Of a DNA stretch of 64,000 bases, positions 346 to 39,402 are shown one piece after another; positions within the stretch are counted from its first letter, which is position 1; every line of letters begins with the position of its first letter. The DNA is from Patescibacteria group bacterium. Lineage in GTDB: Bacteria > Patescibacteriota > Patescibacteriia > Magasanikbacterales > GWA2-37-8. The position numbers and the translations under genes were made by a program. The notes beneath the pieces are model-generated. The model ran no database searches, was not told the origin of the DNA, and saw nothing but the letters and a program-made list of their open reading frames with translations. The stretch is from positions 167,426-231,425 of the forward strand of contig JAKLGL010000001.1 of the NCBI GenBank assembly GCA_022710645.1, in the 5' to 3' direction.

Positions 346-3300
346 TTAGCTATTAGGGCCTCGCAGCACTTGTGAAACAGCGTCCTTGACCATTTCCATA
401 TATTTATCCAACTTACCGCCTTTTTTCAGATAATCTTCAGCTTCTTTGATAGCTTCCAAAGCTCCATCATTATCGGAATTTCTCTTTATCATTTCCATTT
501 TCACCACAAAATCATTGACTTTCTCTTTATCCAAAGGAACACCTTTTTCATTGGCTTTTTCCAAAGCCCGAGAAAGTTTTTCCAAAGCTTTGATTTCTTT
601 TTGGATATTAAACGATTCTTTTTCCGCATCTACGGAACGAATGAAATCAACTTCTTTTTGTTTTTCTTCCAGATATTTATAAGCATCTTCAAAAGCTTTG
701 GCGGTTTGTTTTTCCGCCAAGGACAAAGAAATTTCAGCAGCTCTATTGTCTAAAGCTCCGGCCGTTGCTTTCATCCTTTCCGTTTTAATTTCTTTCAACT
801 TATTCGCTTCTTCTTGTTCTGCGGCATATCTGGCCACTTCTTCTTTGGCTTTTATTTCCGCATCATGAGCTTCCTGACGGATAGCGTCCAATTTGGCTCT
901 GTCGGCCGGATCTATGGGTTTAGCCATAACTTCATCCACTGTTTTCTCTTTATTCAATATTCCCACCAATCCGACTTTTTCCGTTTTTTCAATTTCATTT
1001 TTCAGTTCTTCTATTCTTTTTACAGCTTTAAGATAATCGGCGCTATTTGTTTCTTTGGTCGCTGTATTCAATTTCAACAAAGCCTCTTGCACTTTATCTT
1101 CTCCGGCGCCGGAATAATCTTTAGCCCAACTTTGGGCTTCTTGGACATGTGGTAATTTCTTGAAAAAATCAATATTACTTTTATCCAAACTCTTGGAAGT
1201 TTTTTCAATCACATCTGTCAACGATGATTTGTCTTCCGGAGTATTTTTCAAAGAATCCTTTACCAAAGAAGCTTTTGCCAAAATGCTTTGACTTTTTTCA
1301 AGTTGTCTATTCAATTTACTCAAATTTTCCGGATCATCCACATAACGGCGTTGTAAATTTTTGAACATTTCATCTATTTCTTGTTGGCTTTGAGCTCTTT
1401 GCGTATCAAAACTTTTTTGCATTTCTTGCCATTTCATTTCACTGGCTTTGGCGTTTATTTCTTCTTGCGCAAAAGCTTTATCTATTTTTGCTTCTTCCGC
1501 TTGCATTTCCGCCAATTTTTCTTTTTCCAACAAAGCCCGGCCGGCCGCTTCTTTGGTGTCGGCTTCTTCCTGGATTTTATTTATGATTTCTTCATTACTC
1601 AAACCCAGAGAACGCATGGCGGCTTCTTTGTGCTCACCGGCTTTGGCTAAATTCTCATAATTTTCTGCAATCATTTGTTCGGTGGACAAATCCGCGTTAA
1701 CAGATTCGGCAGTCTGTCCTCCGCCGGTTTGATTTTCTATAATCTTGATATCGCTATCTATAGTTGCTTTGATATCATCAAGCATAGAAAGTGTGCTTTT
1801 GTAATTTGCCGGAACTTCATCTTCCTGCGCTTTAAGCAAAGCTGTTTTCAAATCTTTCAAACGTCCGGCCAAATTATCCGAACCTTCCACTTTGTGTTGC
1901 GAAACCACATTTTCCAAATCGTTTAATCTCTTATTTACAACATCCATTTTTTCAACAAATTTTTGAGCTTTGGCATCGCCAAAATCTTTTTGGATATCTT
2001 TCACGGTTTTCGAATAAATCTCATCCAACTCTTTTCTGTCCGCTTTATTGAACACAGATTTGTTTTCCGCTATTATTTCTTCTCCGGTCATTTTTGGCGA
2101 TTCGTTTTTTTCCAAAGACGTTTCTGTGGTAACTTTCGTTTGAGGAATTTCCACTTTAGGTTTCGGTATTTCCATTTTGTAAGTTTCCACATTATTCTCC
2201 GTAAAACTGCCGTCGGAATTCAAAACAATTTTCGCTTCCGGATTATAAATCAAACCTACGCTTTTGCCGTTTTTCCAAAGATTATTAATTTTCAAAAACT
2301 CTTTGGTTTTCTTTTCGATAAAATCATCCACATCACCCTCGTCTTTAAACCCAAATTTTTCCGGGTCAGCCTCTATCTGTCTTTTGAAGACATCATAATA
2401 TCCGTCGCCTTTATGAATAGTAGTGTCTATTTCTACCGGCTCCGGGGTTTCGGTTGTTTCGGGGATATCGGTTGGAGATAATTTTTCTTCAGCATAAAGA
2501 GGTTCTTCTTTTTCCCAAGGAAGTTTCATATCAATATCTTCATTATTTGGAGAAGTATCATTTTCCAATCCTTGCGCCATCAAAGTTCCCGAAGCCAAAA
2601 CCTCCGAACTAATTTTCCCGGACAATGAATCTATTTTTTCAGAAAGATTGGTAGAACCAAGTGTCAAACGATCAAAATTGGCGGCAAAATTATTCAAAGC
2701 TCCACCTTTTTCCAAAACTCCGTGTTCTGTCGCATTTTTTATATTTTCCAAAGTTTTTTCAATTATTCCGGCGCCTTCTTGATGTAATTCTCCAATAGCC
2801 AAACCGCCGATACCGGCGACTCGCAACAATACACCGCTGGCTTTGATAACATCAATCACTTTCTTGGTTGCAGTTTTTTCCTTATCAAGAACATTCAATT
2901 CTTTCAGGGTTTCATTAAAAGAACCGACAGTCAATTCTTTTAAAATTCCTTTGCGTGTTTCTCCACTGCTTTCTCGACGTCTGTTTTCTTTTCTTAATTT
3001 TAAATATTTTTCAGCCGCGGCCGCAGTTCCGTAAATAACACCGCGCAAAGCATATGTGCCTGTAGCGGTAGTCAAAGTATTCAGAAAATCTTTGGCAATG
3101 GAAACTCCGCTAACTTTATTTTTGGTATAATCGTCGACAATGTCGATAACGGCGGTTTGAGCTTGTTTTTCAGTATTACCTTTTTCACTGTCATATTGTT
3201 TAACCAATTTTTTCAATTTATCTTTCATTTCTTGTTTTTCTTTCGGACTACGATCGGATTTGTTGATTTCATAAAAAAGCTCGCGAGCTCTGGCGATAAA

Positions 3301-4770
3301 AGCCGTTTCTTCTTCTTTTTTCAAATTTTCTTTGCCGACAGTTTTATTTTTTTCCGATTGACGAAGTAAAGAAGCAAATTTTTCTTTTACATTGCCTTCT
3401 TCCATTTTATGTTTGTAATAATCAGCAATATCCCCTTTTCCACCTATAGCTCTGACCAAATCTGTGGCAAATTTAACACCTAAAACCGAAGTGATTGATT
3501 TGTAAGCTGTTTCAGCAGCCATATCTCTGACTTCTTCTTTTTTCAAAACTTCTTTACTCTTTCCAAAAACCTCTTTTGTTTTATTCCAAATTTTTCCAAA
3601 AAAGCCTTTCTTTTCTTCTGTCGGTAAAACAGCTTTCTCCGGAGCGACTATGGTTTTGTCAGTGATATCTTTTAAATCCGCCAAAAAAGCCGTGCGCGCT
3701 TTTTCAAAATCCCCTCGCTCTTCATCATCTTCGGCTTTTTCAACCAAAACCAAATAAGCCTTTGCCGTATCTATGAAATCGGCAGGCATGCTTTTCGCTT
3801 CTTCACCAGAAATATATTTTTGTATTTCTTTTTTGAAAATACTTGCTTCGTTTTTCAAAATTTCCAAGTCGTTTTCCTTGGTTTTTACAGTTTCAATTTT
3901 TATCTCCGGTTTTGCTTCAGGTACGACTTTGATTTCCGGTTCGGGTTTTTCTTCTTTGGCAACAACTTTGACCACAGGTTTGACCTCTTCGACTACTTGC
4001 TGAATTTCTTTTTCTTCTTCTTTTGCCGGAATCTTTTCTTGCGGTTGAACTTCTTCTTGCGGTTTTTCAACGGTTTCAACCGTGGCTAAATTGCGAATTG
4101 ATTCTTGATTTTGCACCAATTCAGCACTTAATCTCTGTAAGGTTTTTTCCATATTTTCCGCTTTTTCTTCACTCTTTACGGAAAGCAGAGTTTCTTGAGC
4201 TTGTTTCAAAGCTTTTTCTATCTTGGTATAATTATTGATGATTTTTCTCTCCGTTTCTTTCATTTCTTCTTTCTTTTTACCTTCGGATAATTTGGCGATT
4301 TCTTCGCCGTGTTTCTCGAACTTATCTCCAAACTCCGCAAATTTTTTTGTTAAATTGTTTTTTATTTCTTCCAATTTTTTCATTTTTTCTTCTTCCGCTT
4401 TTTGAGCGTTTTCTTTTTCTTTATCATTGGTTTCCGTCTTTTCCATTTCTTTCAATGCAATATTCTGAGCCGCTTCCCATAGATAACCGGCCGCTTCGCC
4501 ATAAGCTTTTACCGCGTCTTCCTTTTTTATTTCGGCCAAAATTCTTACGGCTTCGGAATTTTTATCCGCCATATCTTTTAGAGTTTTTCTAGCGCTGTCA
4601 TTTCTTTCTTTATCGGATTTTCTAACACCTTTTTTACCTTCAAAATTTTTCTCTTTGAACTTTTCTAACGCTATCAAAAAAACCGCTTCCTGTCTTTTGT
4701 CGGAAAAAATCTTTTTTGTTTCCGGAACACCACCGCCGCGTTCCGCTTTTATAGTATTGTTAGCTGGCAT
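346..4770 (-). CDS. giant K/E-rich coiled-coil protein (1474 aa), no recognisable enzymatic domain
   Basis: uninterrupted 4.4-kb ORF; heptad-like K/E-rich sequence with proline-rich spacers (EKPEPEIKVVPEAKPEIK); no signal peptide or TM helix seen. Confidence 0.8.
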   Translation of the reverse strand: MPANNTIKAERGGGVPETKKIFSDKRQEAVFLIALEKFKEKNFEGKKGVRKSDKERNDSARKTLKDMADKNSEAVRILAEIKKEDAVKAYGEAAGYLWEAAQNIALKEMEKTETNDKEKENAQKAEEEKMKKLEEIKNNLTKKFAEFGDKFEKHGEEIAKLSEGKKKEEMKETERKIINNYTKIEKALKQAQETLLSVKSEEKAENMEKTLQRLSAELVQNQESIRNLATVETVEKPQEEVQPQEKIPAKEEEKEIQQVVEEVKPVVKVVAKEEKPEPEIKVVPEAKPEIKIETVKTKENDLEILKNEASIFKKEIQKYISGEEAKSMPADFIDTAKAYLVLVEKAEDDEERGDFEKARTAFLADLKDITDKTIVAPEKAVLPTEEKKGFFGKIWNKTKEVFGKSKEVLKKEEVRDMAAETAYKSITSVLGVKFATDLVRAIGGKGDIADYYKHKMEEGNVKEKFASLLRQSEKNKTVGKENLKKEEETAFIARARELFYEINKSDRSPKEKQEMKDKLKKLVKQYDSEKGNTEKQAQTAVIDIVDDYTKNKVSGVSIAKDFLNTLTTATGTYALRGVIYGTAAAAEKYLKLRKENRRRESSGETRKGILKELTVGSFNETLKELNVLDKEKTATKKVIDVIKASGVLLRVAGIGGLAIGELHQEGAGIIEKTLENIKNATEHGVLEKGGALNNFAANFDRLTLGSTNLSEKIDSLSGKISSEVLASGTLMAQGLENDTSPNNEDIDMKLPWEKEEPLYAEEKLSPTDIPETTETPEPVEIDTTIHKGDGYYDVFKRQIEADPEKFGFKDEGDVDDFIEKKTKEFLKINNLWKNGKSVGLIYNPEAKIVLNSDGSFTENNVETYKMEIPKPKVEIPQTKVTTETSLEKNESPKMTGEEIIAENKSVFNKADRKELDEIYSKTVKDIQKDFGDAKAQKFVEKMDVVNKRLNDLENVVSQHKVEGSDNLAGRLKDLKTALLKAQEDEVPANYKSTLSMLDDIKATIDSDIKIIENQTGGGQTAESVNADLSTEQMIAENYENLAKAGEHKEAAMRSLGLSNEEIINKIQEEADTKEAAGRALLEKEKLAEMQAEEAKIDKAFAQEEINAKASEMKWQEMQKSFDTQRAQSQQEIDEMFKNLQRRYVDDPENLSKLNRQLEKSQSILAKASLVKDSLKNTPEDKSSLTDVIEKTSKSLDKSNIDFFKKLPHVQEAQSWAKDYSGAGEDKVQEALLKLNTATKETNSADYLKAVKRIEELKNEIEKTEKVGLVGILNKEKTVDEVMAKPIDPADRAKLDAIRQEAHDAEIKAKEEVARYAAEQEEANKLKEIKTERMKATAGALDNRAAEISLSLAEKQTAKAFEDAYKYLEEKQKEVDFIRSVDAEKESFNIQKEIKALEKLSRALEKANEKGVPLDKEKVNDFVVKMEMIKRNSDNDGALEAIKEAEDYLKKGGKLDKYMEMVKDAVSQVLRGPNS

Positions 4771-19451: not shown

Positions 19452-20597
19452 TTATACTATTTTTCGCAACGCCAATCCTATAGCTACCGACATTCTCGGA
19501 CCGATTTCATTGAGCACTGGTTTGAGTTTTTCTTGATGGACAACTCTGGCCCACGGATCTCCCAAAAAACAACGTATTTGAAATTTCTCCGCTAAAAACT
19601 GGGCTATATAAGGCAAGCTTGCCGCTCCGCCGGTCAAAATTATTTTTTCCGGTTTTTTTTGTTCATTACCCGTTTGTCGCAAATAAACATCAAAACCGTA
19701 TTCTATTTGTTTAACAATAGGATCGATAACCGGGTTAAGCAATGCTAAAAATTTATCTTTATCCAAAGAATTTTTTCCACTCCCGGATTGAAAATGAAAT
19801 ATGTCTGTTTTAATCTGTTCAATTTCTTCATTTTCCACTCCCAAAGTTTTTTGTAATAAAACATCTATCTTATCCCCTCCCAAAGTCAAAGAATGGTGAG
19901 TTATCGGCGCACCCTGATCAATGATAAAAAAATTCGTTCGTTCCGCGCCCATATCTATCAACATAGTGACAGCCGTATCACGTCCGACCAAAGAACGAGC
20001 CAAAGCGACTGATTCCGGCTCCAAAGCTTGGAGCGTTAAACCGGCTTTGGTAAAAACTTGAGTATAAAAAGTCACCAATTTTTTGGAAACAGCGTTAACA
20101 ATAACTTTCTGATTTTTATCTCCGTTCTTGATAATCTGATAATCGAGAACCATTTCTTCCACCGGAAGAGGCAATAATTTTTTGATTTCCGCTTTCAAAA
20201 CCGCATCAAATTCTTTTCTGTCCAATTGAGGCAAATTGACAACTGTATGAAAAACAGCGGAAATCGGTAAACTGGCGGTGGCTAATTTTGAAACAGTTTT
20301 TGCCATTTTACAAACAGCTTTCAAATCAGCGGCGTAATTTTCTATTTGTTTAGGATCTTGCGCTTCCGGTAAATCTTGCAGTCGCAATTCTTTACCCGTA
20401 ACAATATTTTTACTTTTTAATAAATCCTCGACTGTTTTTTCCGTCGGAGCAAAAAGCTTATGGATATTTTTACGTTCCGAACCATAACCATAGGTAAAAA
20501 GAACCGGACGATTTTTTTCCTGTTTCAATTCAACCAATTTTATACCGTGCGCACCCAAATCCACCCCCAAATAGGATTTTGGTTTAGAAAATAACAT
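19452..20597 (-). CDS. pilM: type IV pilus assembly protein PilM (actin-like ATPase fold)
   Basis: SYLGVDLGAHGIKLVELK N-terminus, ...ILTGGAASLP, C-terminal ...IGLALRKIV. Confidence 0.8.
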   Translation of the reverse strand: MLFSKPKSYLGVDLGAHGIKLVELKQEKNRPVLFTYGYGSERKNIHKLFAPTEKTVEDLLKSKNIVTGKELRLQDLPEAQDPKQIENYAADLKAVCKMAKTVSKLATASLPISAVFHTVVNLPQLDRKEFDAVLKAEIKKLLPLPVEEMVLDYQIIKNGDKNQKVIVNAVSKKLVTFYTQVFTKAGLTLQALEPESVALARSLVGRDTAVTMLIDMGAERTNFFIIDQGAPITHHSLTLGGDKIDVLLQKTLGVENEEIEQIKTDIFHFQSGSGKNSLDKDKFLALLNPVIDPIVKQIEYGFDVYLRQTGNEQKKPEKIILTGGAASLPYIAQFLAEKFQIRCFLGDPWARVVHQEKLKPVLNEIGPRMSVAIGLALRKIV

Positions 20598-24204: not shown

Positions 24205-24747
24205 TTGTTATCATTTGAAAAAAGTGCTATAATATGGAAAAAGAAAAATGTGGCCATAACTCCGGAAAAACAACTTCTAAACATGGAAGATAACCAGGCA
24301 GAACAAGCCGGAGATTTTGTCGTAAAAGAAAATAAAGAATCGGCAGAAAGCAAAAAAGAGACTCTTTCTCCCAAAAAAGAAAATCAATCTAAGCCAGAAA
24401 CGGAAAAAAAGCCTTTTTTCAAAAAACCTCGCATTGTTTCCGTGGCAGTGCCCAAATTACGCGACGCAACAACGGTCAGGGTGGAAAAAATCATGGAAGA
24501 GGGTTTGCGCGAAGCTTATGAAAAGATGTCCCCCATCGCCAAACAAGAATTCAAAATCAAGGGCGAAGAAACAGCGGAAAAAATCGGCCAACTGCTCAAA
24601 AAAACTCATGTAAAAGTCAGGAAAATTTTCACTTTGATTTTTGAATGGCTCAAGATGATACCCGGGGTTAATTATTTTTTTCTGGAACAAGAAGCCAAAA
24701 TCAAAGCTGATCGCATACTAGCTTTAAAAAATCATCAAAAAGAATAA
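24205..24747 (+). CDS. hypothetical K/E-rich protein (start may be at 24283)
   Basis: ORF immediately upstream of, and co-oriented with, the ATPase gene (3-nt gap). Confidence 0.5.
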   Translation: MLSFEKSAIIWKKKNVAITPEKQLLNMEDNQAEQAGDFVVKENKESAESKKETLSPKKENQSKPETEKKPFFKKPRIVSVAVPKLRDATTVRVEKIMEEGLREAYEKMSPIAKQEFKIKGEETAEKIGQLLKKTHVKVRKIFTLIFEWLKMIPGVNYFFLEQEAKIKADRILALKNHQKE

Positions 24748-24749
24748 CT

Positions 24750-27308
24750 ATGTCTTTGTTGGGAATTTTTGAAATTAATCTAAGTCTTGATATATTGACA
24801 TCTTTAGGGTTTCCGCCCGAGACTCAAACCGTAGTGTTCAGCGCCGCGCTTATTTTGGTATGCTTGATATTAATGGTCAAAATTTTACGCTTGGTGATGC
24901 ATGAAAAAAATCGTCGCGGGAAAGCTTTTCATAAAACCGTATTTTTGATAAAAGTCCCAAAAGAAAAAAAAGGTGATAAGCAAGAAAGTTTTCAAGAAGA
25001 AAACATAAATCAAATTCGCGAACAAATAGGTACGGCGGAAACTTTATTCTCCAACATCGCCGGCTTGCGTCCGCAAAAAGGTTTTGGGGCTTGGTTGTCC
25101 GGTCGAAACGATAATTTATCTTTTGAAATTGTCGTTAAAGACGGATCTATTTCTTTTTATGTAGCAGTCCCGGCCAAACTTCGCAGTTTGGCGGAACAAC
25201 AAATACACGCTCAATATCCCAATGCCGAAATCAGCGAAGAACCTGATTACAATATTTTCAAGCCGCAAAGTCATATTGTCGGCGCTTATCTCACTTTTAA
25301 AGAAAAATCTTTTTTTCCTTTTAAAACCTACAAACATCTGGAAAGCGATCCTTTGCCGGCATTATTAAACCCTCTTTCAAAATTGGAAAATGATGAAGGC
25401 GCGCTTATCCAATATATAGTCAGACCGGCAGCAAGCAACTGGCGCAAATCCGGAGTTAGAATAGTGCGAGAAATAAAGGAAGGCAAAAAATTCGAATCTG
25501 TTTTGAAAAATTCCGGTTTTAGCAATGCCGCCGCTTCTTGGACTAAAATTATTTTTTCCAACAATAAAAAAGATACTTTGAATCCCAAAGAACCTTACCA
25601 CCTTACTCAGATGGAAGAAGAAATGGTAAAAGGAATGGAAGAAAAAATGAGTCGCGGCGGATTGGAAATCACTGTGCGTTTGGTCAGTTCGGCAAATTCA
25701 CGCGAAAAAGCTAGGTTGAATCTGGATAATATTATCAACGCGTTTTCTCTTTATAATATTTATCGTTACGGAAATTCTTTTTCTGCGCTTATTCCTCGTC
25801 GACCCAATCGTTTGATTCAAGATTCTATCTATCGCGCTTTCAATGAAAAATTTTCTCGAGTCGCTTCCACTGAAGAAATGGCTTCTTTTTGGCATTTACC
25901 TCTCCCCTCCACCGAGACGCCTCATATCAATTGGTTGGGAGCCCGCAAAGCGCCGCCACCGCTTAATATGCCAAACGAGGGTATTGTTTTGGGTCGTTGT
26001 GTTTATCGCGGAGAAGAAACAACTGTCAGGATGAAGCGAGCCGATAGACGACGTCATCTTTACACTATCGGTAAATCCGGCGTTGGTAAATCCGTATTCA
26101 TTCAAAACTTAGCCGTTCAAGACGTGCTTAACGGCGAAGGTGTTTGCGTTATAGATCCGCACGGTGATTTTGCCGAATATGTGCTGCAACATGTTCCCAA
26201 AGAACGCGCCGAAGATGTTATTTATTTCAATCCTTCAGATACCGAACGACCCATAGGTCTCAACATGCTTGAAGTTAAAACCGAAGATCAAAAAGATTTT
26301 GCTTGCCAAGAAATGATTTCCATTTTTTATAAAATGGTTACCGATCCGTCCATGATCGGTCCGATGTTTGAACACAACATGAGAAATGTCATGTTAACCT
26401 TAATGTCAGATGATGTTATGCCGGGAACGATAGCTGAGATTCCGCGTATGTTCACGGACGATGAATTTGTAGAAACTTGGAAGAAAAAATTAAAAGACCC
26501 GGTAGTCATGGCTTTTTGGGAAAAAGAAATGGCCAAAACTTCAGATTTTCACAAATCGGAAATGCTCGGATATCTCATTTCCAAAGTCGGTCGTTTTGTA
26601 GAAAACGCCATGATCAGAAATATTATCGGTCAATCGCATTCCGGATTTAATTTTCGCGAAATCATGGATAACAAAAAAATATTGATAGTAAATTTGGCCA
26701 AAGGATTAGTCGGAGAGATAAACTCCAATTTACTCGGTATGATCATTGTTTCCAAGTTACAAATGGCCGCCATGGAACGAGCATCTTTATCAGAAGAAAA
26801 ACGCCATGATTTTTATTTGTATATTGACGAGTTTCAAAATTTCATTACCGATTCCATAGCCACCATTCTTTCCGAAGCTCGCAAATATCGCTTAAATTTG
26901 ATAGTCGCCAACCAATATATGAAACAATTGGAAGACAATAAAGGCAAAACCGCGGTGCGAGATGCCATCTTGGGAAATGCCGGCACTATCGCCTCTTTTC
27001 GTATCGGTATAGAAGATGCAGAAATACTACAAAAAGAATTTGCGCCCGTATTTTCAGCTTATGATTTGGTCAATGTAGAACAATACACCGCTTATGTGAA
27101 ATTGCTTATTGACAATACCGCCGCCAAACCGTTTAATATGTATACTCTACCGCCTCAACCAGGTAACAAAGAAATGGCGGCCGCTATCAAAGAACTCTCT
27201 CGTTTGAAATACGGACGACCCAGAGAAATAGTCGAAGCGGAAATTTTGGAAAGATCGGCGTTAGGCTCTATCATGACCGGCACTCAACCGACCGAACCGA
27301 GTTTATAA
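24750..27308 (+). CDS. membrane-anchored FtsK/HerA-superfamily P-loop ATPase (VirB4/VirD4/TraG-like, AAA_10/DUF87-type) with a large unrecognised N-terminal domain
   Basis: N-terminal TM (AALILVCLILMVKIL); ~400-aa N-domain shared with ORF 34753-36099; Walker A YTIGKSGVGKS; VCVIDPHGDF; NPSD...P.GLN; Walker B FYLYIDEFQNF; LIVANQYMKQL (Q..QL motif typical of conjugative coupling / HerA ATPases). Confidence 0.85.
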   Translation: MSLLGIFEINLSLDILTSLGFPPETQTVVFSAALILVCLILMVKILRLVMHEKNRRGKAFHKTVFLIKVPKEKKGDKQESFQEENINQIREQIGTAETLFSNIAGLRPQKGFGAWLSGRNDNLSFEIVVKDGSISFYVAVPAKLRSLAEQQIHAQYPNAEISEEPDYNIFKPQSHIVGAYLTFKEKSFFPFKTYKHLESDPLPALLNPLSKLENDEGALIQYIVRPAASNWRKSGVRIVREIKEGKKFESVLKNSGFSNAAASWTKIIFSNNKKDTLNPKEPYHLTQMEEEMVKGMEEKMSRGGLEITVRLVSSANSREKARLNLDNIINAFSLYNIYRYGNSFSALIPRRPNRLIQDSIYRAFNEKFSRVASTEEMASFWHLPLPSTETPHINWLGARKAPPPLNMPNEGIVLGRCVYRGEETTVRMKRADRRRHLYTIGKSGVGKSVFIQNLAVQDVLNGEGVCVIDPHGDFAEYVLQHVPKERAEDVIYFNPSDTERPIGLNMLEVKTEDQKDFACQEMISIFYKMVTDPSMIGPMFEHNMRNVMLTLMSDDVMPGTIAEIPRMFTDDEFVETWKKKLKDPVVMAFWEKEMAKTSDFHKSEMLGYLISKVGRFVENAMIRNIIGQSHSGFNFREIMDNKKILIVNLAKGLVGEINSNLLGMIIVSKLQMAAMERASLSEEKRHDFYLYIDEFQNFITDSIATILSEARKYRLNLIVANQYMKQLEDNKGKTAVRDAILGNAGTIASFRIGIEDAEILQKEFAPVFSAYDLVNVEQYTAYVKLLIDNTAAKPFNMYTLPPQPGNKEMAAAIKELSRLKYGRPREIVEAEILERSALGSIMTGTQPTEPSL

Positions 27309-27360: not shown

Positions 27361-28905
27361 ATGTCAACTTTATATCGAAAATACAGACCGCAAAAGTTTT
27401 CCGATTTGGTAGAACAAAAACATTTGGTCAAAACTTTGCAAAATGAAATCAGCGGAGACAAAATAGCTCATGCTTATCTTTTTTCCGGACCGCGAGGAGT
27501 TGGTAAAACAACTCTGGCCCGACTTTTTGCCAAAGCTGTCAACTGTCAAAATCGCAAACATGGAGAATATGAACCTTGTGATGAATGTTCTTCTTGCCTT
27601 GAAATATCCGCTTCTCGCAATATTGACGTGATAGAAATTGACGCAGCTTCTCATACCGGCGTGGACAATGTTCGAGAAAACATTATTGAAAACGCTCAAT
27701 TTAAGCCGACTAAATCAAAATACAAAGTTTTTATTATCGACGAAGTGCACATGCTTTCCACTTCAGCTTTTAACGCTTTATTAAAAACTTTAGAAGAACC
27801 TCCGTCTCATGCCGTTTTTATCTTAGCCACCACCGAACCGCAAAAAATACCGGCCACCATCATTTCTCGCTGCCAAAGATTTAATTTTAAAAAAATAAAT
27901 TTTGATTCTTTGATTAAACGTCTTGAAGATATAGCTGAACAGGAAAAAATCAAAGTTGACGAAAGTGTATTACGTAAAGTCGCCGCCAAAAGCGACGGCT
28001 GCATGCGTGATGCCGAAAGTTTACTCGGACAAATCTTTTCTTCCGGAAAAAACAAAATAAGTAAAGAAGAAGCCGACAGTGTTCTCCCGACTTCACAAAT
28101 GGAATCGGTAGCTGATTTTGCCGAGGCTGTAATAGATAAAAATCTCGTTGCCGCTTTGCAAATTATAGATGATTTGGCGCAAAACGGAATATCTTTGACA
28201 CAATTTCACGAGGATCTGCTTTCTTTTTGGCGATTACTTTTGATGATAAAAAACAAAATAAAAACATCGACTATTTACGAATTTAGCGATGAAACGATAA
28301 AAAACATGGAAACAATGGCGCAAAAATTAACAGAAAAAGAAATAATGTCTTTTGCAGATTCAACTTTAAAAAGATTAATTTTTGCTAAAAATTGTCCTTT
28401 GGCTCAACTTCCATTAGAGCTTTTGGCGGTAGAACTCATAGAAGACGAATCAGAAAATGAAACTACAAAGGAACCGCAAAAACCGAAAAAAAATATCGTT
28501 GAAATAAAAAAAGAAGAAGAAACAAAAAAACCGGAGGTCAAAAAAACAAGTGAAGAAACTCCGATAGTTCCGCCTAAAAAAACTTCCGCTAAAATCGTAT
28601 CGTTTGAAGAGATAAATGAAAAGTGGCCGGAAGTAATGAGCAAAATAAACGAGAAAAGTCCTTCACTTTTATTTGTCGTTAAAATGGCGGATTTGATAGA
28701 AGCTTCAGATAATATTTTGACTTTATCGTTGCCTTACGATTTTCACCAGAAGAAACTCAAAGATTCCAAAAATAACGAAATTTTACAAACGATATTTAAA
28801 GAAATTTTCGGCGAAACACTTCAACTTAATTGCTCAGTTGCAGAAAAACCCTTAAATACTGAAATAAACGACCTCGCTGCTGATTTTGGCGGACAAGTGA
28901 TTTAA
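27361..28905 (+). CDS. dnaX: DNA polymerase III subunit gamma/tau
   Basis: YRKYRPQKFSDLVEQKHLVKTLQN...AHAYLFSGPRGVGKTTLARLFAKAVNC, Zn module CDECSSC, DEVHMLS. Confidence 0.9.
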   Translation: MSTLYRKYRPQKFSDLVEQKHLVKTLQNEISGDKIAHAYLFSGPRGVGKTTLARLFAKAVNCQNRKHGEYEPCDECSSCLEISASRNIDVIEIDAASHTGVDNVRENIIENAQFKPTKSKYKVFIIDEVHMLSTSAFNALLKTLEEPPSHAVFILATTEPQKIPATIISRCQRFNFKKINFDSLIKRLEDIAEQEKIKVDESVLRKVAAKSDGCMRDAESLLGQIFSSGKNKISKEEADSVLPTSQMESVADFAEAVIDKNLVAALQIIDDLAQNGISLTQFHEDLLSFWRLLLMIKNKIKTSTIYEFSDETIKNMETMAQKLTEKEIMSFADSTLKRLIFAKNCPLAQLPLELLAVELIEDESENETTKEPQKPKKNIVEIKKEEETKKPEVKKTSEETPIVPPKKTSAKIVSFEEINEKWPEVMSKINEKSPSLLFVVKMADLIEASDNILTLSLPYDFHQKKLKDSKNNEILQTIFKEIFGETLQLNCSVAEKPLNTEINDLAADFGGQVI

Positions 28906-34752: not shown

Positions 34753-36099
34753 TTAAGCGTAAGGCAATTCTTCCGGTTCAGGAGGTTTTTCTTGTTTTTG
34801 TTCTTCTTTATATTTCAATCCTCCTTCAAAAACCTCTACTGGTAAATTGGTCGGCGGTTCACTGCGTTTTCCGCCGGCTTTTTGGATAAGCGGGGCTTTT
34901 ACCGTCGGCATCGGGAAATGCCACAAAGTCGCCAACTCTTCTATATTCAACATATATGGATCGCTTTTTAATTTCATTTTTCTTTTTTTGTAGGCTGAAA
35001 CCGCATCATTTCCCCCGATAGATGAAGCCTTGAAACCGTTTTGGTTGGCAATATAAAACTGATTGATAGAACCTATAAAACCATTGATACATTTTTTGGG
35101 ATTGAACACTTCTTTGCGAGCGCTATAGAGTAAACGCAAACGAGATTTAAAACCAAGTTTAGAAATTTTATTTTCAATTCCGGAAATGGCATTTTTGACA
35201 CCCGGCGCCACTTCTCCTTTACTCTCTTCTTTTTTCTTTTCACTGCCGCTAAAATCATGAGTCCAAATTTGCCAAATTAATTTTAAAATACCTTCAGTAA
35301 AATTAGCAACGTGTTGAGCGGCATTCGGTTTGGGCGGAGCCTTTTTACCGCTAGCCAAATTTTTTACCAAATCTATCCCCTTTTTCTTCCAACTATTGTC
35401 CGCCGGTTCTACTATGAGTTGCATCCATAAATTTTCACCAGCGCCGATACGCGTAAAATTTTCCAAAATTGCCGCCATCGGATCAATAAACGGCGCATCT
35501 TTGTATAAACTATGTTCAAACTCCGTATAAGTACGTATCGGATAAGAATCATCTTCCGCCATATCAAATTCCACACCCGCCACTTCATAACGATTATCCG
35601 GAAAATTATCCGGTAAATTCGTGATATAATCTTCAACTTCGGTTATTTCCGCTTCCGGGTATTGAGCATAGATAGCAGCTTCAACCAGATCTCGAAACTC
35701 ACTCGGCATTCTCACCAGAAATTGAATATACCCCTCCAAACTGATAATTTCTAAACTGAAATTTTTTTGCTTTTTACCTAACCAATATTTATCATAAAGG
35801 CCTATTTTGGAATATATACCGCTAAAATGTGTAAAAATTTGTTCCACTGCGCGAGGAGATTGGATAACTGCCGCCGGAATATCCACAGCCAAAACAGACC
35901 AAGAGCAAGTACTGTCAAATCTTTTTTGTTTCAAAGACAAAACTTCTCCCAAACCTTTATGAAAAAGGGGGGTTATCGGCAACCACCAAAGAAATACAAA
36001 AGCCAACCGCAATTGTTCGGTCAAACTCATTTCCATAAATGTCTGCCAAAAACCCAAACTTATGGAAAAATTCCACGGTGTTTCAATAACCGGAACCAT
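34753..36099 (-). CDS. membrane-anchored protein paralogous to the N-terminal domain of the 852-aa ATPase (no ATPase module)
   Basis: aligns with 24750-26070: IYAQYPEAEITEVEDY vs IHAQYPNAEISEEPDY; LWMQLIVEPADNSWKKKG vs ALIQYIVRPAASNWRKSG; WHFPMPTVKAP vs WHLPLPSTETP; ATG at 36099, or TTG at 36108. Confidence 0.7.
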   Translation of the reverse strand: MVPVIETPWNFSISLGFWQTFMEMSLTEQLRLAFVFLWWLPITPLFHKGLGEVLSLKQKRFDSTCSWSVLAVDIPAAVIQSPRAVEQIFTHFSGIYSKIGLYDKYWLGKKQKNFSLEIISLEGYIQFLVRMPSEFRDLVEAAIYAQYPEAEITEVEDYITNLPDNFPDNRYEVAGVEFDMAEDDSYPIRTYTEFEHSLYKDAPFIDPMAAILENFTRIGAGENLWMQLIVEPADNSWKKKGIDLVKNLASGKKAPPKPNAAQHVANFTEGILKLIWQIWTHDFSGSEKKKEESKGEVAPGVKNAISGIENKISKLGFKSRLRLLYSARKEVFNPKKCINGFIGSINQFYIANQNGFKASSIGGNDAVSAYKKRKMKLKSDPYMLNIEELATLWHFPMPTVKAPLIQKAGGKRSEPPTNLPVEVFEGGLKYKEEQKQEKPPEPEELPYA

Positions 36100-36100
36100 A

Positions 36101-36259
36101 TTAATCAATTAAACGATAAATCAAACCGTATACGATTATCACCGTAACCCCGGTCCACCACCATCCGGATAAACCTGAGAAGTATCCGGCAATGTAAGCC
36201 AAAAGGCAACATATTGTGGCTAAAAAAGAAACCAGGTGTTTTACCGTATTATCAGACAT
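36101..36259 (-). CDS. small hydrophobic protein (~51 aa), probably co-transcribed with 34753-36099
   Basis: MSDNTVKHLVSFLATICCLLAYIAGYFSGLSGWWWTGVTVIIVYGLIYRLID; its stop abuts the downstream start; not in the ORF track because shorter than 60 aa. Confidence 0.4.
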   Translation of the reverse strand: MSDNTVKHLVSFLATICCLLAYIAGYFSGLSGWWWTGVTVIIVYGLIYRLID

Positions 36260-37332: not shown

Positions 37333-39402
37333 TTATTTCTTAATTTCGTTAATAGCTTCGCCTTGTTTTTTATCAAAACCCAAAAAGAAAATATTTCCTT
37401 CCGGTTTGAACCAAGCAAAAGAGAAACGACATAATATTCTGGTGATAGTAACAGCGGTAAACATGGAAACCAATACACCGATAGCCAAAGTCACAGCAAA
37501 ACCTTGAACAAAACCAGTACCAAGCCAGATCAAAAATACACAACTGATAAGAGTGGTTATATTACTGTCGCGAATAGAACTCCAAGCGCGAATAAACGCT
37601 TCTTCCATAGCCGTAGTCAAAGTTTTTTTGTTTTTCAATTCTTCTTTGAGGCGTTCAAAAACCAAAACATTGGCATCAACCGCCATACCAACAGAAAGAA
37701 TGAAACCGGCGATACCGGAAAGAGTCAATGTCACACCCAATAACTTGAACAAAGCCAAAGTGATAGAGCCGTAAATTACCAAAGAAAAAACAGATACTAT
37801 GCCCGGCCAGCGATAATACAAAATCATGAATAAAATAATTAACATCAAACCTACCAAACCGGCTTTGAAACTGGAAGTTAAAGAATCCGCTCCCAATGTA
37901 GCATCCACTTTTTGTTGAGAAATCAATTCTACAGGCACAGGCAAAGCGCCAGAGTTCAATCTTTGGGCCAATAAACGAGCTTCTTCCCAAGTAAATTCAC
38001 CGCTTATAACAGCACTTCCATCTTTAATAGGTTCGTTTACTTTAGGTACGCTTATCGGTTGACCATCCAAGAAAATAGCTACCGGTTTACCGACATTACG
38101 TGTAGTTAAATCGCCAAACAATTTTGCGCCATCAGTATCAAATTGCAAACTAACTTGAACTTGACCGGTACGAGAATCAGAAACAACTTCGGCTCTTTTT
38201 AACTGTTTACCGGAAAGTCCGGTATCTTTCCATTCGTCAGCCGGAGGAACAAAATCGGTTTTATCTTTGGTATTAACAAAAATTCTGGCAATTTCATATT
38301 CTTTCGGGGTTTTTTCATCTTTTTTATAAATTAAATGAAAACCAAAAGGAGTTTCTACTACATCGGATATTTGTCCTTTTTGCATGGCAAAAACGGCATT
38401 TTCAAAATCAGGCACCATGTCGCCTTTTTTGAACCAACCCAAATCCCCGCCTCTGTCGGCAGCACCCGGTTCAGTGGAATATTGTTTTACCAAATCAGCA
38501 AATCCGGAAACAGTGGCTTGCTGTTTGATTTCTTGAATTTTTTTCAAAGCATCTTCTTTGGTCGGATAATTTTGACTGTCGCAATTCGTGGCTCCGGTAT
38601 AACAAATCAAAAGATGGGCGGCGTTGACTTGAACATCACCGTCTTTTTCGGAAATTTTCTTGACTATATTATAACCGTCTACGCTTTTTATAACTCTACT
38701 ATTAACACCGGTTTTAGCGGTTTTGGCCCAAGCGTAAATTTCCGGTTGAGCATCTTCGGAGATAAAACCGATATTGCCGCTATTGTTTTTTGATTCTAAA
38801 TCTTCACTATAACGATTAACCGCTTCCACAAAAGTTATTTTGCGCAAATCGGTCAAAGCTTGATTAATCTTTTTTTCCGCAGCTTTATTGTATTCATTCA
38901 TTTGTTTGGTTTCGTCCGCAGTCATTTCTCTTTGTCCTTCTGTATTCTGTTCTTTAAACGCCAAAACCGGAGTTTCTCCGATCATTTTGATAGCTTGGTT
39001 AACATCAGTCACACCCGGAAGTTCTACGATAACACGATATTCTTCACCGACTCTGGTGGTTTGTACCAAAGGTTCGGCCACACCGAGTCCTCCGCGAACA
39101 CGTCTTTCAATAACGTCGCGAACACCTTCAACAGAACCGGCTTTGTCCTTTTCTGCTATATTGGAAGTGTCGGCTTGATAAATCAAATGAGCTCCACCGC
39201 GCAAATCCAGACCGAGATTAAACCCGTTATCCGGCAAAAGCGGCATACCGATACTCATTTTATCGTTAATAAATTTAAAACCACTGTTGACAATACTCGG
39301 GAAAATTACCACGAGACAAAGCAACAATAAAGCAAACGAACCGGCCACCCTCCAGTAAATTTGGGTTCGCGTAAACTTCTTGGGAGCAAGATTGCTAGCC
39401 AT
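37333..39402 (-). CDS. secD: protein translocase subunit SecD with an embedded parvulin-type peptidyl-prolyl isomerase domain
   Basis: N-terminal TM plus LGLDLRGGAHLIY SecD start and C-terminal SecD TM bundle; the internal segment VNAAHLLICY...GGDLGWFKKGDMVPDFENAVFAMQKGQISDVVETPFGFHLIYK is a canonical PpiC/parvulin domain. Confidence 0.85.
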   Translation of the reverse strand: MASNLAPKKFTRTQIYWRVAGSFALLLLCLVVIFPSIVNSGFKFINDKMSIGMPLLPDNGFNLGLDLRGGAHLIYQADTSNIAEKDKAGSVEGVRDVIERRVRGGLGVAEPLVQTTRVGEEYRVIVELPGVTDVNQAIKMIGETPVLAFKEQNTEGQREMTADETKQMNEYNKAAEKKINQALTDLRKITFVEAVNRYSEDLESKNNSGNIGFISEDAQPEIYAWAKTAKTGVNSRVIKSVDGYNIVKKISEKDGDVQVNAAHLLICYTGATNCDSQNYPTKEDALKKIQEIKQQATVSGFADLVKQYSTEPGAADRGGDLGWFKKGDMVPDFENAVFAMQKGQISDVVETPFGFHLIYKKDEKTPKEYEIARIFVNTKDKTDFVPPADEWKDTGLSGKQLKRAEVVSDSRTGQVQVSLQFDTDGAKLFGDLTTRNVGKPVAIFLDGQPISVPKVNEPIKDGSAVISGEFTWEEARLLAQRLNSGALPVPVELISQQKVDATLGADSLTSSFKAGLVGLMLIILFMILYYRWPGIVSVFSLVIYGSITLALFKLLGVTLTLSGIAGFILSVGMAVDANVLVFERLKEELKNKKTLTTAMEEAFIRAWSSIRDSNITTLISCVFLIWLGTGFVQGFAVTLAIGVLVSMFTAVTITRILCRFSFAWFKPEGNIFFLGFDKKQGEAINEIKK

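Follow-up and report, generated by a model that had tools for sequence, protein, structure and literature searches.

What does a membrane-anchored, conjugation-type ATPase do on a bacterial chromosome, in a stretch of DNA that otherwise encodes housekeeping functions? Patescibacteria, which account for much of bacterial diversity, live in dependence on host cells, and we know of no T4SS other than theirs that is essential to the bacterium carrying it. The question is raised here by an 852-aa protein encoded in 64 kb of patescibacterial DNA (the whole stretch that was analysed, called the window below). The features that matter for the answer are the following:

24205..24233 (+): promoter-like site TTGTTA-17-(TGc)TATAAT, 5' of the pair of small ORF and ATPase gene; consensus match only
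24205..24747 (+): small partner ORF, 180 aa from TTG 24205, likely start GTG 24250 (165 aa)
24750..27308 (+): DUF8128 plus T4CP-like ATPase, 852 aa; ORF list, Pfam, homologues, PDB and PHROG sequence searches
24828..24893 (+): single N-terminal TM helix, aa ~27-48; Kyte-Doolittle maximum 2.92, long helix in both AlphaFold models
24927..25979 (+): DUF8128 (PF26449) domain, aa ~60-410, with predicted VirB4 N-terminal-domain fold
25890..25973 (+): conserved junction motif WHLPLPSTETPHINWLGARKAPPPLNMP, aa 381-408, end of DUF8128 and fusion/fission point; alignment, motif counts
25992..27149 (+): VirD4/TrwB-type (T4CP-like) P-loop ATPase domain, aa ~415-800; Pfam, PDB sequence search
26070..26093 (+): Walker A GKSGVGKS, aa 441-448; in 120/120 among the homologues listed
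26811..26831 (+): Walker B FYLYIDE, aa 688-694; in 120/120 among the homologues listed
34753..36108 (-): stand-alone DUF8128 paralog, 451 aa, no ATPase, downstream of secA-secD-secF; tblastn, Pfam on homologues

The ORF of 852 aa starts with ATG and is a genuine gene. Its product has one strongly hydrophobic helix near the N-terminus, in agreement with the single TM helix of the initial annotation, and since Lys and Arg are absent from aa 1-26 and number six in aa 48-70, just after the helix, the topology is N-out/C-in. The C-terminal half reads as a P-loop ATPase: besides Walker A and a Walker B stretch that runs on to FYLYIDEFQ (aa 688-696), it contains DPHGD (aa 469-473), NPSD (aa 494-497) and the Q-motif ANQYMKQL (aa 719-726), which is the full list of motifs reported earlier, and among the homologues listed DP.GD and the Q-motif are each found in 117 of 120. 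Four Pfam families score above their cut-offs, PF10412 (TrwB_AAD_bind, 39 bits against 20.5), PF02534 (T4SS-DNA_transf, 32.4 against 20.1), PF12696 (TraG-D_C, 28.6 against 22) and PF01935 (DUF87, the HerA central P-loop domain, 30.6 against 23.2), the last over aa 414-518 only, where the match signifies superfamily-level HerA membership and nothing closer. In a PDB sequence search with the 852-aa protein TrwB was the sole match (E 5e-7). The original description of a membrane-anchored conjugation-type ATPase in the FtsK/HerA superfamily is thus borne out, and what defines a T4CP, a nucleotide-binding domain homologous to that of TrwB/VirD4 with Walker A and B, is present by sequence. FtsK_SpoIIIE gave no Pfam match. 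The TrwB_AAD_bind alignment covers aa 426-747, within which aa 512-640 are predicted to be helical, with pLDDT below 50 in the model; pLDDT is below 50 for the ATPase half of the full-length AlphaFold model, which served only as a replicate for the N-domain.

The resemblance to known coupling proteins is nevertheless a distant one. Like VirD4/TrwB (R388 TrwB, pSK41 TrsK) the protein combines the homologous P-loop domain with a membrane anchor at the N-terminus, but in place of their short two-TM N-terminus it has one TM helix and a 350-aa domain resembling the VirB4 N-terminal domain (NTD). The cut-offs of the curated NCBIfam T4CP models are not reached, the best being TIGR03743 (49.9 bits against 366); CD1115 gives 33.8 against 250. 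An HMM of the ATPase half gives 126-174 bits on DUF8128-linked ATPases and 13.8 bits on pSK41 TrsK, of VirD4 type, which places canonical T4CPs very far from the 852-aa protein, and no more than 10.6 bits on four VirB4-type ATPases. In hhalign, the full-length profile reached 56% probability against a single TrsE (VirB4) and 20% against a single TrsK (VirD4), both weak and local. By the HMM scores the DUF8128-linked ATPase domains are a clade of their own, apart from canonical VirD4 as well as canonical VirB4.

The N-terminal half had been described as a distinct conserved module of unrecognised type. The module stands, and it can now be named: PF26449 (DUF8128) is precomputed on each of the 120 homologues listed for the 852-aa protein (identity up to 94%), and it is through this annotation of homologues that the domain is assigned. 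The half terminates in WHLPLP...PPLNMP, a motif shared with the ORF at 34753..36108, and among the homologues listed the junction motif occurs in 120/120 of the fused and in 119/120 of the stand-alone proteins. Foldseek with the predicted N-domain returned TrwK chains (VirB4) as all of its top 14 matches, at modest query-normalised TM-scores of 0.33-0.39, from a model built on a shallow 25-sequence alignment and with the full-length AlphaFold model as replicate. At the level of fold, and with the modest scores in mind, DUF8128 is confidently predicted to be a VirB4-type NTD. The notion of an orphan fold therefore falls, and with it one half of what the initial annotation had named beforehand as speaking against its own reading. 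HerA and FtsK structures are missing from the N-domain fold matches, and neither a HerA HAS-barrel with NurA partner nor FtsK alpha/beta/gamma domains were found, nor a NurA-like neighbour. At the sequence level the link between DUF8128 and VirB4 is silent: the N-domain profile matched nothing among PDB sequences, a Pfam scan of all 25 alignment members at E <= 1 returned noise only, and hhalign gave 0.5% probability against a single pSK41 TrsD sequence.

In VirB4 the NTD comprises residues 15-400, forms by itself the central/outside VirB4 dimer interface and is wrapped by VirB3 (Mace et al., 2022; PMC9259494). Is the 852-aa protein then simply the VirB4 orthologue of the Patescibacteria T4SS, or a VirB3-VirB4-like fusion, with a diverged ATPase? 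The predicted fold of its N-domain is that of the VirB4 NTD (TrwK of R388; PDB 7o42, 7o41, 8rtd), its proportions are similar (NTD of ~350 aa and ATPase of ~400 aa, against 15-400 and 400-823 in TrwK; PMC9259494), and the N-terminal TM helix recalls VirB3-VirB4 fusions. However, the N-domain has no sequence similarity to that of VirB4/TrwK, and the ATPase domain, with at most 10.6 bits on VirB4-type proteins, is nearer to VirD4. The VirB4 families CagE_TrbE_VirB, AAA_10 and P-loop_TraG gave no Pfam match to the 852-aa protein, NCBIfam VirB4_plasma and TraC reached 19.7 bits (cut-off 590) and 14.9 bits (cut-off 567), and VirB4 chains were absent from the matches of the PDB sequence search, although TrwK was present in the PDB set. 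Published CPR VirB4 usually has VirB3, VirB6 or TrsD genes nearby, and no VirB3, VirB6, VirB8 or TrsD gene lies within the 64-kb window. Finally, where the family occurs on Bacillus plasmids and in phage G, a true VirB4 is encoded alongside it as a separate protein. Taken with its evidence on both sides, orthology to VirB4 is improbable.

The two modules also occur apart. The paralog at 34753..36108 aligns with the 852-aa protein over aa 60-410 (25% identity, E 7e-30, tblastn), and its homologues carry no Pfam family other than PF26449 (119/120 among those listed). It is the 'paralog' of the initial annotation, and it shares the N-domain but not the ATPase. An 855-aa ORF at 12356-14923 was rejected as a paralog, being a PEP-utilising enzyme. 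In other CPR lineages the order secDF-DUF8128 is found again, there with a separate ATPase gene after it, and at one such split locus (L088) the stand-alone DUF8128 gene is directly followed by the gene for a 669-aa ATPase that aligns with aa 403-832 of the 852-aa protein (44% identity, E 8e-120), so that the alignment begins inside the junction motif. The TrsD/TraD protein of pGO1/pSK41, which stands alone and for which a remote relationship to the VirB4 N-terminus has been claimed, is a conceptual analogue of the 451-aa paralog, each being an NTD-like protein whose gene is separate from that of the ATPase, with the difference that TrsD has 227 aa and adjoins virB4, whereas the paralog adjoins secDF.

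Fused or as adjacent genes, DUF8128 and the ATPase are found in other CPR lineages, on Bacillus-group plasmids, in Bacillus phage G and, as a split pair, on the Halobacterium hubeiense plasmid pSTJ001, which removes the earlier idea of a CPR-specific apparatus. The 852-aa protein matches phrog_5156 with E 1e-86, and its architecture is that of phrog_5156/phage G gp156 and of 'DUF87 domain-containing' proteins encoded on Bacillus, Shouchella and Clostridium plasmids, with further relatives in SPO1-like phages. Identity to the plasmid and phage relatives is only 21-28%; the N-domain profile finds them with hhalign probabilities of 96-97%. These relatives differ in belonging to mobile elements, in lying beside T4SS or VirB4-type genes and in lacking the small K/E-rich partner. 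On the Bacillus subtilis and Shouchella plasmids the relative adjoins a 'replication-relaxation' gene, a TcpE/VirB3-like gene and a separate ATPase of VirB4 size, and in phage G gp156 adjoins the VirB4-type gp155; mobile-element relatives hold the T4CP position beside a relaxase-type gene. The plasmid pLS20 was rejected as a source of such a relative, since its T4CP (p48) is of the canonical two-TM type, and the Bacillus plasmid matches therefore belong to a different plasmid family. At another locus (L017) a second ATPase-like ORF encodes a truncated relative of 266 aa, in which the middle region is missing.

In the window the ATPase gene has a close companion. The small ORF ends with TAA at 24745-24747, followed by 'CT' and the ATG of the ATPase gene, so the co-oriented upstream ORF of the initial annotation is there, with a gap of 2 nt instead of 3, and its length of 180 aa holds only from TTG 24205. 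We favour GTG 24250 as the start because the promoter-like site (10/12 consensus matches and an extended -10 TG) overlaps TTG 24205 and because of the N-termini of the homologues. No terminator-like site was found between 24050 and 29100. In the product a variable N-terminal tail rich in P/E/K precedes a conserved helical C-terminal domain of ~95 aa with the stretch EKIMEEGL...QEFKIKGE...WL..LPG.N.FFLEQEAKIK.D; the product has no strong TM segment and gave no Pfam, NCBIfam, PADLOC or PHROG match. Its ~699 homologue clusters, all annotated 'hypothetical' and none with a Pfam domain, come from Magasanikbacteria-type genomes only; at the locus of a divergent fused homologue (L086) the upstream gene is unrelated. 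In 78 of 80 related loci the small ORF lies directly 5' of the ATPase gene, with a gap mostly between -4 and +11 nt. It is a genuine, conserved and tightly coupled partner gene.

The order PilM-CysRS-(CorA)-small ORF-ATPase-DnaX is kept in 80 species-level genomes. PilM ends at 20597, ~4.1 kb upstream of the 852-aa gene, and the linkage to a type IV pilus block that had been suggested amounts to synteny across the class, the two being separated by CysRS and CorA. Across the 80 genomes, whose loci were chosen by similarity to the 852-aa protein itself, the median identity is 72.9% for this protein and 84.8% for its ATPase domain, against 62.1% for CysRS, 60.7% for SecF and 46.8% for DnaX. Conservation of the 852-aa gene exceeds that of the housekeeping genes around it. 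Apart from the locus itself the window holds housekeeping genes only, at uniform GC content, and no VirB4, VirB6, PilB, PilC, relaxase or integrase gene was found in its 64 kb, in line with the earlier remark on VirB6, PilB and PilC; in being chromosomal, with no relaxase or T4SS genes in the window, the gene is unlike those of canonical T4CPs.

These observations bear on two further explanations. The gene could have been left behind or be carried by a conjugative element or prophage integrated in the chromosome, and so be an ordinary mobile-element T4CP, as its relatives on plasmids and phages might lead one to think. Yet its position between CysRS/CorA and DnaX is constant in the 80 species-level genomes, its identity exceeds that of the flanking housekeeping genes, and the window shows neither integrase, relaxase or T4SS gene nor compositional anomaly. 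The locus lies outside any conjugative element, and the fragment of such an element that had been named in advance as the contrary outcome is not what we see; that this copy is mobile-element cargo or a remnant is very unlikely. Much the same holds for an anti-phage defence ATPase of MADS mad8-like or HerA-like kind, a role floated earlier. PADLOC mad8 matches with E 1e-15 and HerA matches are weak, but the mad8 match covers the generic ATPase domain only, no MADS multi-gene locus or other defence-system genes were found nearby (CorA, the small ORF and DnaX are the neighbours, and a PADLOC scan of three adjacent or related ORFs gave no match), and a vertically inherited, syntenic gene that is more conserved than an aminoacyl-tRNA synthetase behaves like a core gene and unlike defence islands, so that we give this idea hardly any weight.

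Orphan ATPases of this general kind are already known in Patescibacteria. According to a recent survey (Quinonero-Coronel et al., 2025; PMC12102498), 2,918 of 3,035 genomes (96%) encode VirD4-like homologues, 5,713 in all, VirB4 occurs in 2,417 (80%), and only 148 of the 5,713 are near virB4. The 852-aa protein almost certainly belongs to this set, which consists of VirD4-HMM-positive ATPases at about two per genome, usually far from virB4, and close Magasanikbacteria homologues carry the NCBI name 'type IV secretion system DNA-binding domain-containing protein'. The existence of the orphans is thus published; what is added here is the N-domain's likeness to VirB4, the modularity with fused and split forms, and the conserved small gene upstream. 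The survey, as far as its available text goes, gives no account of DUF8128, of a VirB4-NTD fold, of the stand-alone paralog, of fused and split forms, of the small ORF or of relatives outside CPR.

Does such an ATPase still need a T4SS? Exaptation is raised by the authors of PMC12102498 themselves, and the DUF8128-ATPase, its small partner and the secDF-side DUF8128 could together be a T4SS-independent translocase serving as an envelope housekeeping machine, possibly in DNA or nucleic-acid import or export, in FtsK-like chromosome handling at division or in helping protein export. By the counts above T4CP homologues are present in more genomes than VirB4 and seldom lie near it, and according to the same paper the T4CP homologue of S. 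epibionticum, not necessarily the orthologue of the 852-aa gene, is non-essential while its T4SS genes are essential; the wider distribution and this non-essentiality therefore favour a T4SS-independent role. The conservation above CysRS, SecF and DnaX, the stable dnaX neighbour, the paralog by secDF across CPR lineages and the window free of T4SS genes fit as well. On the other hand, all non-CPR relatives examined adjoin T4SS or VirB4-type genes, synteny within one class may simply mirror vertical inheritance, and the non-essentiality in S. epibionticum speaks against indispensable housekeeping there. We consider this translocase a credible but lesser possibility.

The reading that we prefer, at a probability of about 0.55, is that of a membrane-anchored translocation ATPase from a distinct and widespread lineage of the VirB4/VirD4 superfamily, which has been domesticated and acts as a motor feeding a membrane channel. 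It has three parts, the N-terminal TM helix, the ~350-aa DUF8128 with VirB4-NTD fold and a VirD4/TrwB-like ATPase with intact catalytic motifs. In monoderm bacteria and in archaea, mobile elements carry both modules, fused or adjacent, in the coupling-protein position, and in this Patescibacteria lineage the gene has, on this reading, been domesticated into a vertically inherited core chromosomal gene. The ATPase domains would assemble into a hexameric ring on the inner side of the membrane, and ATP hydrolysis would serve to recruit the substrate, most likely DNA or nucleoprotein and possibly protein, and to drive it to a membrane channel. DUF8128 would play the part of the VirB4 NTD, as a membrane-proximal platform that pairs NTD to NTD and is gripped by small partner proteins; the stand-alone paralog is a candidate for the 'outer' NTD partner and the translationally coupled small ORF for a lineage-specific adaptor. 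The analysis shows how the protein is built, the fold assigned to DUF8128, the clade, the fusions and fissions, the synteny and the conservation; oligomeric state, partners and substrate are inferred. As channel we prefer the Patescibacteria T4SS whose genes lie elsewhere on the chromosome, and as the 64 kb contain no T4SS channel gene, this coupling is purely inferential.

A broader proposal, which we advance as speculation, is that DUF8128-linked ATPases are a third ancient motor lineage of the T4SS superfamily, with a VirB4-type NTD on a VirD4-like engine, bridging VirB4 and VirD4. In Patescibacteria they would form a near-universal, T4SS-independent core machine with two paralogous sets (fused with the small adaptor, and stand-alone DUF8128 by secDF), by which nucleic acid or protein would pass the single membrane, to the benefit of an epibiotic lifestyle.

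More than 5,700 'orphan' VirD4-like ATPases are left unexplained by the 2025 survey (PMC12102498). The VirB4-type NTD, the fused and split systems and the high conservation suggest a model for them in which the NTD mediates docking and pairing, with the stand-alone NTD paralog and the small adaptor as partners. The shared architecture links the gene to other uncharacterised genes in Bacillus plasmids, jumbo and SPO1-like phages and haloarchaeal plasmids, the predicted fold would give Pfam DUF8128 a fold-level annotation, and the finding bears on how VirB4 and VirD4 diverged.

The 852-aa ORF at 24750..27308 (+) exists as the initial annotation had it. It begins with an ATG codon, and all of the ATPase motifs claimed for it are found in its C-terminal half:

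aa 441-448, Walker A, GKSGVGKS
aa 469-473, DPHGD
aa 494-497, NPSD
aa 688-696, Walker B, FYLYIDEFQ
aa 719-726, ANQYMKQL

The catalytic motifs are intact, with both Walker A and Walker B present in 120/120 homologues among the database matches listed. There is one strongly hydrophobic helix (aa ~27-48), with no K/R before it and six after it, which points to an N-out/C-in topology and implies that the rest of the protein past this helix would be cytoplasmic.

The N-terminal domain, originally described as unrecognised, is catalogued in Pfam as DUF8128 (PF26449), a family that is precomputed on homologues of both this protein and its stand-alone paralog. We aligned the N-domains of both paralog families (25 sequences, alignment A1) and modelled aa 1-415 (pTM 0.72, core pLDDT ~80-88). 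When this model was compared with the whole PDB in Foldseek, ranks 1-14 were all chains of TrwK, the VirB4 of R388 (E 1.9e-5 to 2.4e-3, probability >=0.98), and E exceeded 0.03 after rank 14. DUF8128 is therefore predicted to have a VirB4-NTD-like fold. The likeness to VirB4 is on the level of the fold only: the A1 profile found no VirB4 among the PDB sequences, no A1 member matched the VirB4 N-terminal Pfam families at E <= 1, and hhalign of DUF8128 against pSK41 TrsD, which is said to be remotely related to the VirB4 N-terminus, was negative.

The ATPase half is of the class named initially. Over aa ~414-761 it matches four Pfam families, each exceeding its gathering cut-off: TrwB_AAD_bind (39 bits), T4SS-DNA_transf (32.4 bits), DUF87 (30.6 bits) and TraG-D_C (28.6 bits). 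The sole solved structure matched in PDB sequences is the VirD4-type TrwB (E 5e-7 with the single sequence, and also with the family profile), and neither sequence nor profile matched any VirB4 chain in this database, which contains TrwK. Because of these matches, and since the NCBIfam models for T4CP, VirB4 and TraC score far under their cut-offs, the ATPase engine is, judged from its sequence, VirD4-like but very divergent. The architecture thus consists of a TM helix, the VirB4-NTD-like DUF8128 and a VirD4-like ATPase. An HMM built from the ATPase half scored 126-174 bits on DUF8128-linked ATPases (n=4 proteins), 13.8 bits on pSK41 TrsK (canonical VirD4 type) and <=10.6 bits on VirB4-type ATPases (n=4 proteins). 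These scores indicate that DUF8128-linked ATPases are a separate clade in the VirB4/VirD4 superfamily, with VirD4 marginally nearer. That the protein is a VirB4 orthologue is unlikely.

The paralog mentioned initially is the 451-aa ORF at 34753..36108 (-); the N-domain is all that it shares (tblastn E 7e-30, aa 60-410), and it lacks an ATPase. The 855-aa ORF at 12356-14923 was ruled out as a paralog, being a PEP-utilising enzyme. Judged from their distribution, DUF8128 and the ATPase form a pair of modules that stay associated, either fused or split. In other CPR lineages secD-secF are followed by a stand-alone DUF8128 gene, as with the paralog in the window. In one such locus (L088) the next gene directly after it encodes a 669-aa protein with 44% identity (E 8e-120) to aa 403-832 of the 852-aa protein, and the alignment starts within the PP.N.P junction motif. 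At its C-terminus this separate ATPase (6864-8873 in L088) bears a treble-clef zinc finger (zf_Tbcl_2, E 5e-7), and it also has a long tail of low complexity; the window protein has neither. One related genome (locus L017) carries at 13915-14715 an extra 266-aa mini-ATPase; it is related to the 852-aa protein around Walker A and towards the C-terminus but has no middle region.

A CPR-specific apparatus had been suggested initially, but the architecture also has relatives on plasmids and in a phage and is therefore not confined to CPR. An archaeal example of the split form is Halobacterium hubeiense plasmid pSTJ001, where a 387-aa DUF8128-like gene lies upstream of a 1030-aa gene annotated 'type IV secretory system conjugative DNA transfer family protein'. 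Full-length fused relatives are found on plasmids of Bacillus subtilis and Shouchella clausii, each directly followed by a 'replication-relaxation family' gene and, further along, by conjugal-transfer genes, a TcpE/VirB3-like gene and a separate VirB4-size ATPase. In Bacillus phage G the fused gp156 adjoins gp155, itself VirB4-type (P-loop_TraG, AAA_10), and phrog_5156 (PHROG, unknown function) matches aa 95-836 of the window protein with E 1e-86. The N-domain profile alone aligned to the plasmid, phage and haloarchaeal proteins with hhalign probabilities of 96-97% over 258-307 columns. On mobile elements, DUF8128-linked ATPases are found alongside true VirB4. An exhaustive A1 profile search returned 3,799 50%-identity cluster representatives at E <= 1e-3, the best 150 of which are mostly stand-alone proteins (median length 479 aa). 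SPO1-like and other Bacillus phages (JL, CP-51, Shanette, SPO1L4) match the ATPase half only (query aa ~439-833; for example KC595512.2, KF554508.2 and OQ921339.1), and these relatives are often mis-annotated as 'lipid A export ATP-binding/permease MsbA'.

The window itself is ordinary chromosome. It contains genes for SmpB, IF3, PEP synthase, LigA, CysRS, CorA, DnaX, PurA, Dus, SecDF, SecA, CTP synthase, L9, Era, aminoacyl-tRNA synthetases and more, GC content is flat along it, and no relaxase, integrase, VirB4, VirB6, PilB or PilC is found in the 64 kb, in line with the non-conjugative context noted initially. In such surroundings a remnant of an ICE is an unlikely explanation of the gene, and so is a defence system. 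Further features of the window are:

346-4770 (-), 1474-aa ORF, a large uncharacterised protein with no Pfam match at E <= 1e-5
17093-20597 (-), type IV pilus block of prepilin peptidase, two tandem pilins with near-identical N-termini, receiver-domain protein and PilM, with no PilB, PilC or PilT alongside it in the window
18947-19372, the stand-alone receiver-domain protein of this block (Response_reg, E 7e-18)
27361-28905 (+), DnaX (tau/gamma), immediately downstream of the ATPase gene
37333-39402 (-), SecD with a PpiC-type peptidyl-prolyl isomerase (rotamase) domain inserted between P1 subdomains, an insertion found also in the SecD of another CPR lineage (L088, 450-2477)
58941-59891 (-), delta-prime-like, the second clamp-loader gene

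Relatives numbered at least 567 in a scan of species-representative genomes; the 80 best, all from Magasanikbacteria-type MAGs (60-94% identity), have in common the order PilM-CysRS-(CorA)-small ORF-ATPase-DnaX-C39 peptidase. The PilM-CysRS-...-ATPase order is conserved class-wide.

Median identity to the window proteins in the same genomes, at loci selected for their similarity to this same ATPase
ATPase domain only: 84.8%
ATPase, whole protein: 72.9%
CorA: 64.9%
DUF8128 domain of ATPase: 62.6%
CysRS: 62.1%
SecF: 60.7%
PilM: 54.2%
Small ORF: 51.5%
DUF8128 paralog: 47.7%
DnaX: 46.8%

Despite the ATPase-based choice of loci, these identities indicate that the gene behaves as a core gene, unlike mobile-element cargo, and we take its domestication on the chromosome as shown.

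The co-oriented small ORF reported upstream of the ATPase is present, with a gap of 2 nt rather than 3, but its length of 180 aa, counted from TTG 24205, is doubtful. Since a promoter-like TTGTTA-17-TGcTATAAT (consensus match only) overlaps this TTG and the nearest homologues start with MAITPEKQ, the start codon is probably GTG 24250, giving 165 aa. The small ORF sits directly 5' of the ATPase gene in 78/80 loci, spaced mostly by -4 to +11 nt; its P/E/K-rich tail is variable, while the ~95-aa helical C-terminal domain is strongly conserved. The family comprises ~699 clusters, all from the Magasanikbacteria-type lineage and none with a Pfam assignment; in L086, the locus of a more divergent fused homologue, the upstream gene is unrelated. 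Because no terminator-like site was found between them, the small ORF, ATPase and dnaX may be co-transcribed.

What is the role of this protein then? Quinonero-Coronel et al. (2025, PMC12102498) report 5,713 VirD4-like T4CP homologues in 2,918/3,035 Patescibacteria genomes, 148/5,713 of them near virB4, and VirB4 in 2,417 of 3,035 genomes; the window protein evidently belongs to this set. Its close homologues are named 'type IV secretion system DNA-binding domain-containing protein' by NCBI. Proteins of this class are therefore already on record, whereas which domains they have and how these are arranged as modules seems to be undescribed: we found neither the fold of the N-domain nor the paralog, the fusion/fission relationship or the non-CPR relatives described in the accessible parts of that paper, in a 2025 T4SS nomenclature review or, within the literature searched, under DUF8128/PF26449.

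Every non-CPR relative examined is accompanied by T4SS or VirB4-type genes, and for this reason we favour, with a probability of roughly 0.55, a domesticated coupling/energising ATPase that would be associated with the chromosomal T4SS of Patescibacteria. A serious rival, which we regard as possible though clearly less probable, is an exapted translocase working independently of any T4SS. It is favoured by the occurrence of T4CP homologues in 96% of Patescibacteria genomes vs VirB4 in 80% (PMC12102498), by the lack of linkage to virB4 and by the conserved place of the paralog after secDF. According to the same paper the T4CP homologue of S. epibionticum is non-essential whereas T4SS genes are essential, and the authors state that exaptation 'cannot be ruled out'.

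For a T4SS-associated ATPase we propose the following mechanism. The ATPase domains probably assemble as a hexamer at the inner membrane face, like TrwB and VirB4, and would spend ATP on recruiting a macromolecular substrate and driving it forward. In the R388 apparatus it is only through its N-terminal domain that VirB4 forms the central/outside dimer interface, and this domain is wrapped by VirB3 (Mace et al., 2022, PMC9259494); by analogy, DUF8128 could be a docking and pairing platform, with the stand-alone paralog as a candidate NTD partner and the small ORF product as a candidate adaptor. The result offers a structural hypothesis that can be tested for the orphan ATPases, thousands in number, of a major bacterial radiation, and it also bears on the evolution of VirB4 and VirD4.
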